Assembly (NCBI GenBank): GCA_016213335.1
Contig: JACRAQ010000115.1
Coordinates: 1,338-65,337, forward strand
Direction: 5' to 3'
DNA: 64,000 nucleotides
DNA from: Nitrosomonadales bacterium
GTDB taxonomy: Bacteria > Pseudomonadota > Gammaproteobacteria > Burkholderiales > Gallionellaceae
Shown here: positions 7,285 through 47,662 of the stretch, piece by piece
How positions within the stretch are numbered: position 1 is the stretch's first letter
Layout: every line of letters starts with the position of its first letter
Notes under the pieces: generated by a model
What the model saw: the letters and a program-made list of their open reading frames with translations, nothing else
Told to the model about the DNA's origin: nothing
Database searches by the model: none
Made by a program: the position numbers and the translations under genes

Positions 7285-7334
7285 CCCGCATCCCCTTCTC
7301 TCCCCCGGATGGAGAGAAGGCAAAGGGATCGCGG
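7285..7334. repeat. GC-rich imperfect hairpin (REP-like), possible bamA terminator
   Basis: cccgcatccccttctctcc (7285-7303) / loop cccggat / ggagagaaggcaaagggatcgcgg (7311-7334). The CCCTCTCC/GGAGAGGG flavour matches the element inside hisH. Confidence 0.6.
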
Positions 7335-45003: not shown

Positions 45004-46116
45004 ATGCCTTCCGCCAGCATTGCCGCGCCCCCCGATCGCCTGCTCCGCCAGGAAGTGCTTGCCCTGCACGCCTATCACGTGCCACCCGCCACCGGCATGA
45101 TCAAGCTGGACGCGATGGAAAACCCCTACCCCTTGCCCCCCTCCCTGCGCGAAGAAATCGCCCGCCTGGTGGCAAATGCCGCGATTAACCGCTACCCCGA
45201 CCCCGGCGCCCACAGCCTGAAGGAAAAAATTCGCGCCGTGACCGGCTTGGCGCAGGATGCTGCGGTGCTGCTCGGTAATGGCTCGGACGAGCTGATCCAG
45301 TTGCTCGCGCTGGCGGTGGCCCGCCCCGGCGCGACACTGTTGAGCGTTGACCCCTCCTTTGTCATGTACCGGATGATCGCCGCTTTCACCGGCATGCGCT
45401 ATGCCGGCGTGCCGCTGGCGGAAAATTTTGCGCTGGATTTGCCGGCCGTGCTGGGCGCCATCCAGCGCCACCAGCCTGCGCTGGTGTTTCTCGCCTACCC
45501 CAACAACCCGAGCGGCAACCTGTTCGACGAGGAAGCCATCAAACAAATCCTCGCGGCTGCTCCCGGCCTGGTGGTAGTGGATGAAGCCTATTACGCTTTT
45601 GCCCGCGCCAGCTTTATTCCCCTGTTGTCGCAGTACCAGAATTTGCTGGTGATGCGCACTTTCTCCAAGCTTGGCATGGCCGGGCTGCGCCTTGGTTTCC
45701 TGGCCGGCAGCAGGATATGGCTGGAACAGCTGGAAAAACTGCGCTTGCCGTATAATGTCGGCGTACTCACGCAACAGGTGGCAGAAAAATTATTGCAGCA
45801 CCACGATGTGCTGTTACAGCAGGCAGAACAGATCAAGCGGGATCGCGCGTGGCTGTACGAGCGGCTGGTGGGGACAGCGGATGTGCGGCCCTACCCCAGC
45901 GAGGCCAATTTCATCCTGTTTCGCGCGATGCATGCCGATGACGTGTTTGCGGGGCTAAAGCAGCGCGGTGTGCTGATCAAGAATTTGAATGGCACACATT
46001 CGCTGCTGGCCGATTGCCTGCGTGTCACAGTGGGAACACCGGAAGAAAACGAGCGGTTCGTGGCCGCGTTGCAGGAAAGTTTGCACACCGCTCGAGCGAG
46101 TTTCGGCGAAAGCTAA
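45004..46116 (+). CDS. hisC: histidinol-phosphate aminotransferase
   Basis: 370 aa with [22 protein letters not shown] and the PLP-lysine region [15 protein letters not shown]. The 3' end is remodelled by a 33-bp direct repeat (see findings). Confidence 0.92.
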
Positions 46117-46170
46117 CCTTCAGGTTATGCTGGAGCCAAAACGAGCGGTTCGTGGCCGCGTTGCAGGAAA
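46046..46170. repeat. Perfect 33-bp direct repeat pair (46046-46078 and 46138-46170) flanking a 59-bp insert at the hisC 3' end
   Basis: aaaacgagcggttcgtggccgcgttgcaggaaa occurs twice, 92 bp apart. The first copy is in the hisC frame ([11 protein letters not shown]). The second copy would read the same peptide in another frame. Confidence 0.9.
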
Positions 46171-46873: not shown

Positions 46874-47662
46874 GTGGACATCGCGGTTGTAGATTACGGC
46901 ATGGGGAACCTGCGTTCGGTGCAGCAGGCGTTGCGCGCAGTTGCGCCCGGGGCTTCCATCGCGGTGACCGGCGACCCGCTTGTTGTGGCACAGGCGGCGC
47001 GCGTGGTTTTTCCCGGTCAGGGCGCAATGCCGGACTGCATGCGCGAGCTGGAGGCGCGCGGCCTGCGCGCGGCAGTGCTGCAAGCGGCGCGCGGCAAACC
47101 TTTTCTCGGTATTTGCATCGGCCTGCAAATGTTGTTTGAACGCAGCGCGGAAGGTAATATTCCCGGCCTCGGCATTTTGCCCGGCAAGGTGGTGCGCTTT
47201 GCCGGTGATTTGCGTGACGTGCAGGGCAACAAGCTCAAGGTGCCGCACATGGGCTGGAACCAGGTGCGAAGGATCGAACAGCCCGCATCTCCACAAGGGG
47301 ATGCGACGATCACCCCCTCTCCCTCCGGGGGAGGGTTGGGGCGGGGGAACGCGCTCCCTCTCCCCAACCCTCTCCCGAGGAGCGAGGGAGCAGTGGCCGC
47401 TTCCACCGTTGGCGGAAGCCCAAAAGTTGACGAACACCCCCTGTGGGCCGGCATTGAGCAGGATGCGCGCTTTTATTTCGTGCACAGCTATTATGTGCAG
47501 CCGCAGGATGCCGCGCTGGTGCAAGCCACCAGCGATTATCCGCAGCCTTTCGCGTGCGCCGTGGCGCGCGATAATTTGTTTGCCGTACAGTTCCACCCGG
47601 AAAAAAGCCAGAGTGCCGGGTTGACACTGTTGCGGAATTTCGTGAACTGGAACCCTGTTTAA
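46874..47662 (+). CDS. hisH: imidazole glycerol phosphate synthase, glutamine amidotransferase subunit, carrying a ~50-codon in-frame repeat insertion
   Basis: 262 aa with a GTG start, DYGMGNLRS, catalytic GICIGLQML and FHPEKS. The segment between PHMGWNQV and HPLWAGIE is about 56 aa, versus the handful I recall for typical HisH. Confidence 0.9.
47313..47390. repeat. GC-rich multi-hairpin palindromic repeat (REP/MITE-like) embedded in frame in hisH
   Basis: Three hairpins are visible. First: CCCTCC-ggg-GGAGGG (47321-47335). Second: ggggagggttggggcggggga (47328-47348) pairs with tccctctccccaaccctctcc (47355-47375) at 18 of 21 positions. Third: CTCCC…GGGAG (47372-47390). Confidence 0.8.

Follow-up and report, generated by a model that had tools for sequence, protein, structure and literature searches.

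Two inverted BoxC/PIT/TMECO repeat units lie in frame within hisH of a Gallionellaceae genome

To our knowledge, the BoxC repeats are among the oldest unexplained bacterial repeats, and their origin has been a puzzle since the 1990s. The TMECO, formerly the BoxC or PIT element, follows the pattern 5'-CCCTCNCCC-N3-6-GGGNGAGGG-N3-GGGNGAGGG, with one mismatched triplet allowed, and has 3610 occurrences in 262 proteobacterial genomes (Holder et al. 2015, PMC4666352). The same study established by CD and NMR that it forms an intrastrand purine-motif triplex in vitro, and it describes repeats that often form inverted pairs of two subtypes, that have no transposase and no known function, and that in E. 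coli MG1655 are "always located intergenically"; the earlier BoxC/PIT work of Hoyne/Maher and of Bachellier is taken here as it is cited there (PMC4666352). In-frame palindromic selfish DNA has a precedent in the RPEs of Rickettsia (Ogata et al. 2000, 2002, as summarized in PMC10969869), whose in-frame insertion that summary describes as reaching an unusually high level, and intragenic ERIC/MITE in-frame fusions are cited in the same review (Delihas 2007, in PMC10969869). What is new here is the presence of BoxC/PIT/TMECO copies inside genes, a setting for which we found no report in the literature searched.

The window analyzed, a stretch of 64,000 nucleotides from a Gallionellaceae genome, carries histidine genes in the order hisC-hisB-hisH-hisA-hisF-hisI (ORF list), with hisH between hisB and hisA at 46874-47662 on the + strand. 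The ORF list, Pfam and PDB matches identify its product of 262 aa as the glutamine amidotransferase subunit of imidazole glycerol phosphate synthase. In Pfam the protein matches class-I glutamine amidotransferase (GATase) in two stretches and no other family, and the match to solved structures breaks at residue 132 and restarts at 186, a gap over which the chain of 4gud moves on by 2 residues. We pulled hisH from 40 related genomes and built a 24-sequence HisH alignment (the window's protein and 23 relatives), in which 18 of the 24 sequences have an empty site of the form NQV-HH-xD/E-HPLW with about four residues at the turn, in line with the handful that the original prediction gave for a typical HisH. 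Together with the PDB chains, this alignment delimits the insert at 47273-47431 (+), 159 bp or 53 codons forming residues 134-186 in frame, which confirms the predicted coordinates; the extra segment was thus correctly seen, and its length of about 56 residues is corrected to 53. The segment is not universal among the orthologues, being missing from the same 18 of 24 genomes. The reading frame and the catalytic regions had been described as preserved, and Cys81 (GICIG) and His241/Glu243 (HPEKS) are indeed invariant columns of the alignment.

The insert differs from its host gene in composition, with a GC content of 67% compared with 62% in the rest of hisH, and with GGG or GGA as eight of its nine glycine codons, compared with GGC as 12 of 19 in the remainder. 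Its conceptual translation is 34% proline plus glycine. In an AlphaFold2 model made with the 24-sequence alignment, the HisH core has pLDDT values above 90, and residues 138-184 fall below 50 and have no secondary structure. The insert is therefore predicted to be a Pro/Gly/Ser-rich disordered loop in the solvent-exposed turn that follows the PHMGWNQV strand, a placement that is based on secondary structure and pLDDT and that agrees with the surface loop proposed originally.

Read against the relatives, the insert resolves into two elements in mirror arrangement. Element A consists of a hairpin, a 9-nt spacer and a repeat unit on the + strand, and element B of a repeat unit on the - strand, a spacer and a further hairpin. 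Hairpin 1 of element A (CGCATCTCC-ACAA-GGGGATGCG, 47284-47305 on the + strand, arms 47284-47292/47297-47305) was located by hairpin search and RNA folding, and in five insert-bearing relatives its stems differ yet pair, for example as CCTCGCCC-GCA-GGGCGAGG or CGCACCCCC-GCAA-GGGGGTGCG. The BoxC/TM unit of element A follows at 47315-47347 (+) and reads CCCTCTCCC-TCC-GGGGGAGGG-TTG-GGGCGGGGG; it was found by pattern scan with one mismatch in the third block, and BLAST gives matches of 35-37 nt elsewhere in the genome at 92-97% identity. The inverted BoxC/TM unit of element B, at 47356-47388 on the - strand, has the reverse complement ..GGGAGAGGG-TTG-GGGAGAGGG with two mismatches in the C-block and exact second and third blocks, and shares exact matches of 22-24 nt with units of the same subtype on contigs C95 and C113. 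Hairpin 3 closes element B at 47399-47419 (+, GCTTCCACC-GTT-GGCGGAAGC, arms 47399-47407/47411-47419, again from hairpin search and RNA folding) and is conserved in allele P0058 as GCGCCCACC-GTT-GGTGGAAGC.

The two units are 8 nt apart (47348-47355) and of different subtypes. Head to head, A and B make an imperfect palindrome of 106 bp at 47299-47404, which belongs to neither strand and whose 53-nt arms (47299-47351/47352-47404) are 72% complementary with no spacer between them; this palindrome folds into the long hairpin at the center of the RNA fold as well as of the DNA fold. The RNA fold of 47264-47440 has an energy of -95.9 kcal/mol (z = -5.1; none of 200 shuffles reached this stability) and the DNA fold of the insert a z of -3.6. 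The stack of hairpins that had been proposed for the insert DNA is thereby borne out, with three strong hairpins and a folding energy beyond that of shuffled controls. The internal order of A and B was read from a MAG in 144 contigs, with similar alleles in other assemblies as its support.

We found no transposase and no clear target-site duplication for the hisH insert. A direct repeat flanking it (CGAACAGCCC at 47275-47284 on the + strand and CGAACACCCC at 47431-47440) is identical at 9 of 10 positions and is a candidate for such a duplication; similar direct repeats can be seen by eye in the hisH inserts of two related genomes (G016 and G021). In the filled and empty pairs available for hisH and murD the junctions are too diverged to fix a duplication, which stays a candidate. 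A 14-nt direct repeat (GACGATCACCCCCT/GACGAACACCCCCT) with copies 124 bp apart was also considered and rejected, because removing 124 bp breaks the frame and the repeat cannot therefore mark a clean insertion. Given the lack of a transposase, of a clear duplication and of a RAYT gene (below), the word mobile as applied to these repeats refers to their distribution only.

The repeat unit of hisH belongs to the BoxC/PIT/TMECO "intrastrand triplex motif" family. The A unit fits the published pattern with its single mismatch in block 3, where a C at a T/A position makes one bad triad. In the 2.54-Mb genome 73 units fit a relaxed form of the pattern and 59 a stricter form with a 3-nt loop, compared with 0 for a reversed-pattern control; BLAST and the pattern scans thus agree on dozens of further copies of the DNA motif in the genome. 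Pattern matches, 59 here, range from 0 to 139 across 24 genomes of this family and are almost absent outside it, with the reversed control at 0 everywhere. Across the 73 units 87% of the stem positions are Watson-Crick, with in addition one constant T:G position, and the units have GGGGGAGGG/GGGTGGGGG as their local consensus. Their third block is a mirror of the purine block: counting G.G:C, A.A:T and T.A:T as compatible purine-motif triads, 603 of 657 triads are compatible, compared with 503 of 657 in the wrong (same-index) register, and of 87 A positions in the purine block, 66 have A or T as their mirror partner, compared with 18 of 87 in the wrong register. The calculations on the triplex side were of hairpin energies only. 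The exact motif of 24 specified bases occurs also in Desulfobacteraceae, Dehalococcoidia, Acidobacteriota, Planctomycetota and others, and its betaproteobacterial matches are in the Gallionellaceae (Gallionella, Sideroxydans and Sideroxyarcus). A search of the insert against Rfam gave only sub-threshold matches to miRNA-shaped hairpins.

The local repeats share with the described family the three blocks, namely a C-block, a purine block and a G-block that mirrors it, joined by 3-nt loops. In both, a genome has many almost identical copies, whose number differs greatly from one close relative to the next, and the copies often stand as inverted pairs of two subtypes, have no transposase nearby and are associated with local rearrangement. 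They differ in that the E. coli copies are reported as always intergenic, whereas over half of the units here are inside housekeeping reading frames, and in that the local consensus has its constant T:G position and the hisH copies add an accessory hairpin. An intergenic hairpin at 7285-7334 (CCTTCTCTCC-CCCGGAT-GGAGAGAAGG, nested in an outer stem), which had been likened to that of hisH and does resemble BoxC, falls outside the family, having no third G-block and being single-copy by BLAST.

The original prediction had named the insert a REP/MITE-like element, and of this designation the dispersed repeat holds, whereas the REP/RAYT type does not and the classical MITE type probably does not, the BoxC/PIT/TMECO triplex motif taking their place. 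REP and REPIN sequences are likewise short GC-rich imperfect palindromes, often in inverted doublets and with tens of dispersed copies, but the present unit has a third, mirrored block and is not extragenic. No match to the RAYT Y1 transposase (PF01797) was found in this 92.7%-complete genome, control genomes did give matches, and a REP/RAYT identity of the hisH element was rejected for the lack of a Y1 transposase. As to MITEs, A and B are mirror images of one another and a signature of terminal inverted repeats with a duplication is not established. The ERIC/MITE fusions cited in the review concern small non-autonomous repeats that are occasionally inside ORFs; as presented there they are exceptions within largely intergenic families, whereas here the intragenic copies are the majority.

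To place the hisH units in the context of the whole genome, we sought for each of the 73 units an ORF spanning it and ran these ORFs through Pfam. At least 39 of the 73 units lie in frame inside 27 Pfam-supported genes, in which the Pfam matches either flank the unit on its two sides or run through it, and hisH is thus one of at least 27 genes so affected in this genome. They include metG, leuS, cysS, murC, murD, an mpl-like ligase, bioA, purL, mutS, mfd, recQ, comEC and coaBC, and further hrpA (with seven units), an acrB-type gene, an M3 peptidase, an ABC ATPase, two aminotransferases, acyl-CoA and 3-hydroxyacyl-CoA dehydrogenases, and others. Single units are sense to the host gene in eight cases and antisense in 13, and the intragenic units are read in several frames to give several different peptides. 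Many of them lie at domain boundaries, such as those between the N and M domains of MurD, the M and C domains of MurC and the catalytic and DALR domains of CysS, or in the linker of CoaBC. The murD unit is shared with one congener (G002) and absent from another (G001), which indicates that presence and absence turn over within the genus. In that first congener a 118-bp insert interrupts the murD unit and another of 43 bp comes after it, all in frame (L179:1240-1560), another pile-up of insertions at one permissive site.

With this the BoxC repeats here behave like the RPEs, in a large-scale colonization of the frames of essential enzymes, and do so in a free-living lineage. As far as the RPEs are summarized in the review, both are palindromic selfish DNA found in frame in many unrelated housekeeping genes, where they add a peptide at positions compatible with the fold. 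By the same summary, RPEs are AT-rich and about 100-150 bp long, in contrast to a 67% GC insert with a three-block unit, and they encode a conserved peptide in one frame, in contrast to the several frames and both strands used here; their hosts are obligate intracellular, whereas the present one is a free-living betaproteobacterium of the iron-oxidizer type. On the composition and the three-block unit, homology between the two is very unlikely.

The hisH site itself has been filled repeatedly. Five other genomes, from four further genera and a congener, are filled at the same codon with 25 to 45 additional residues, and the site is empty in most genera. The insert bearers do not form a clade in a HisH tree from which the insert was left out; a filled genome, G021, is sister to an empty one of the same genus, G004, with support of 98/97, and these two have 40 and 0 units genome-wide. 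A search of a protein collection with HisH residues 120-200 gave 112 clusters, nearly all of 233-300 aa, and from an aligned sample of these we read the kinds of allele. More than 100 protein clusters carry inserts at the hisH site, in A-only, B-only, A+B and nested forms, and the site is a hot spot in the Gallionellaceae. The A-only alleles, of about 237-239 aa, are the commonest and include that of a cultured isolate, Sideroxydans sp. CL21, which lies on a 3.77-Mb contig and would yield the insert-spanning peptides ...NQVRRVNTLASPR / GEATVAPSPPGGGLGWGNTPEHPLWSGIEQDAR. Every allele seen is in frame and without a stop, with insert lengths of 75, 78, 84, 135, 147 and 159 bp.

In the DNA of a B-only allele from another assembly, element B is the same and its right part is nearly identical to that of the window, and the left junction is the ancestral CAT CAC (His-His), whereas all A-bearing alleles share an altered V-(R/Q)(R/Q)-I/V. 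This difference indicates that A and B entered separately. Element A probably entered once, and the site would then have been hit at least twice independently, by A and by B, and afterwards by nested repeats in relatives. The claim that one element landed in hisH is upheld as far as the insertion of a repeat is concerned, and not as a single simple landing in this genome, given two elements and A-only, B-only and A+B alleles that are widespread in the Gallionellaceae. The stems do not vary among the A alleles, synonymous sites included, and the changes are confined to the loops and to the N position of each block, where they alter the amino acid (Arg/Trp); with the stems fixed at synonymous sites and the variable position changing the residue, the constraint is on the DNA and not on the peptide.

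A second repeat family (GCCTAGTCGAATGGCTAGTAG...; GCCTAGTCGAATGGCTAGTAGTTCCATCAG) was noticed alongside the BoxC units, with at least 17 copies in the genome of the window (for example C46:28597-28626, C87:3578-3607 and C45:539-568). In several relatives it is nested in BoxC units, where it breaks the hairpin, and the hisH inserts of G016 and allele P0058 (L239) both contain it. Such nesting of a second family inside BoxC units at the hisH site suggests that this turn is a dump site for selfish DNA. There is also a longer composite element with outer inverted repeats of its own, TGAAACTCGCGCAGCGATTCGTTTG-[BoxC unit]-AAACGGGCATGGCAAGTTTCA..., for example at C82:24270-24400, C128:28850-28950, C137:6500-6620 and C102:13150-13260; its short hairpin and CGTTTGCC spacer resemble hairpin 1 and the spacer of hisH element A.

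The original prediction took the insert for a repeat that is tolerated as extra peptide, an interpretation that our data support as essentially right. We consider it probable that the hisH insert is two head-to-head copies of a selfish BoxC/PIT/TMECO repeat, read through and tolerated in a permissive loop without being of use. On this explanation the repeat copies, each with its accessory hairpin, would have come to sit in the solvent-exposed turn after the PHMGWNQV strand. Neither strand of the unit contains a stop in the frames that are used here, and the insert length is a multiple of three, so that the gene could be read through and the insert would become a disordered loop with the core and catalytic triad intact. 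Being useless to HisH, it would persist where insertions at this turn escape counter-selection, and the same family has colonized at least 27 genes of the genome likewise, mostly at domain boundaries and loops. A counter-point is that element A has been kept in many lineages, including the cultured isolate, which could mean that it has acquired some use. The segment might then be a functional, lineage-specific loop of HisH, with a role in regulation or in docking to HisF or another partner, that protein selection maintains, the repeats elsewhere being coincidental or derived from it; the A-type insert of about 28 residues does have a recognizable peptide in dozens of clusters from five genera. 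We nevertheless regard such a loop as unlikely, given that most genera do without the insert and sister genomes differ in it, that the alleles vary wildly in length and content, that the segment is predicted to be disordered and uses the rarer glycine codons of its host gene, and that conservation acts at the DNA level, with stems fixed at synonymous sites and changes at N positions altering the residue. Moreover, 27 unrelated genes read the same DNA in various frames and from either strand.

A role of the hairpins in the his mRNA, where they would pause the ribosome, block an RNase or stabilize the message and so tune the stoichiometry of HisH, HisA and HisF, would account for the very stable predicted RNA (-95.9 kcal/mol, z = -5.1) and for a hairpin 1 whose pairing is kept through different stems in six genomes, often with GNRA-like loops. 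That stem variation may, however, only mirror different source copies, most relatives with the same operon lack the insert, units elsewhere take either orientation to the host gene (the eight sense and 13 antisense single units), no Rfam family is matched, and PIT elements had neither promoter nor terminator activity in published tests (PMC4666352), all of which makes an RNA-level role improbable. Less probable again is that the insert is removed before or after translation, in the manner of an intron, a bypassed segment or an intein, to leave a mature HisH of normal length. Nothing direct speaks for removal, and against it stand the alleles of 75-159 bp, all in frame and free of stops, which would be needless if the segment were excised, together with the lack of an intein/Hint domain in Pfam, of an intron match in Rfam, and of conserved Cys/Ser/Thr and His-Asn residues at the junctions. 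That every allele is in frame instead argues for read-through. We give just as little weight to an assembly artifact, that is, a repeat-driven chimeric or duplicated join inside the hisH of a MAG. The 144 contigs, the several units less than 100 bp from contig ends and the hisH contig of the congener G001, which ends inside the insert, would fit such a join, but both flanks here are hisH and in frame, and A-only, B-only and A+B forms with near-identical junctions recur in independent NCBI, JGI, ENA and Logan assemblies as well as in the 3.77-Mb isolate contig.

If the hisH insert is indeed a pair of selfish repeats, the question of what moves them follows, and here a family of nucleases deserves mention as a candidate mobilizer of the BoxC units. 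In this genome hrpA (C86:4758-9419, L152/L224; 1554 aa), the gene with seven BoxC units, has a DUF559 domain, a Vsr-like nuclease, in frame at residues 657-761 between repeat doublets, and the same arrangement of hrpA with DUF559 is apparently present in three other genomes (G021, G019 and G001) in open frames of 1357-1542 aa. An HMM search of 41 genomes with PF04480 gave 44 matches, several of them within open frames 700-1570 aa long. Inverted BoxC units bracket a DUF559 gene at 16 of the 30 loci fetched from relatives (L209-L238), with a + unit just upstream, a - unit just downstream, the G-tails inward and usually the same subtype at both ends, and across 25 genomes of the family the counts of units and of DUF559 correlate (Spearman 0.50, p = 0.01). 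The A and B units of hisH likewise face each other with their G-tails inward, as around the nuclease of a cassette, and the doublet could accordingly be read as the outcome of cargo loss. It is possible, though in our estimate rather doubtful, that the BoxC repeats are the end-repeats and cargo-less offspring of small cassettes with a DUF559 nuclease as their sole gene, that the A+B pair in hisH is a cassette minus its cargo, and that the patchy occupation of one site across genera reflects homing-like copying or short-tract recombination into empty alleles and not random transposition. Against a simple link with DUF559 stand the 73 units of this genome and its one DUF559 copy, which tblastn places inside hrpA, a genome with 27 units and no DUF559 (G022), two with DUF559 genes and no canonical solo units (G004 and G016), and the differing subtypes of the hisH pair. 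A close relative of the hrpA DUF559 is found in only 1 of 117 cross-phylum repeat loci, and with this and the single copy a one-to-one link is not supported; DUF559 as a multi-copy, one-to-one partner of the repeats in this genome was rejected on the same grounds. At hisH itself there is no DUF559 cassette, with only 8 nt between units of different subtypes, and all 112 HisH relatives are too short to accommodate a nuclease.

The hisH site amounts to an unusually good natural experiment, in which a single codon-level site occurs empty, with A, with B, with both or with nested repeats across more than 100 sequence clusters. Since a cultured Sideroxydans is among the carriers, translation of the insert, its cost and the mechanism of insertion are directly testable, and the allele series combined with a culturable carrier offers a handle on what moves BoxC repeats. 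Near the site, at 46046-46170 in the 3' end of hisC, the window also has a 33-bp direct repeat whose copies are 59 bp apart; the spacer between them is single-copy by BLAST and unrelated to BoxC. For annotation and binning it matters that BoxC repeats add 15-90 residues to proteins and cause breaks in assemblies. Many contigs of this genome have a BoxC unit no more than a few hundred bases from their start or end (C104:9, C111:37, C38:75, C55:80, C85:99, C112:190, C137:309 and C51:433), and the repeats are probably behind much of the fragmentation seen in MAGs of this kind.
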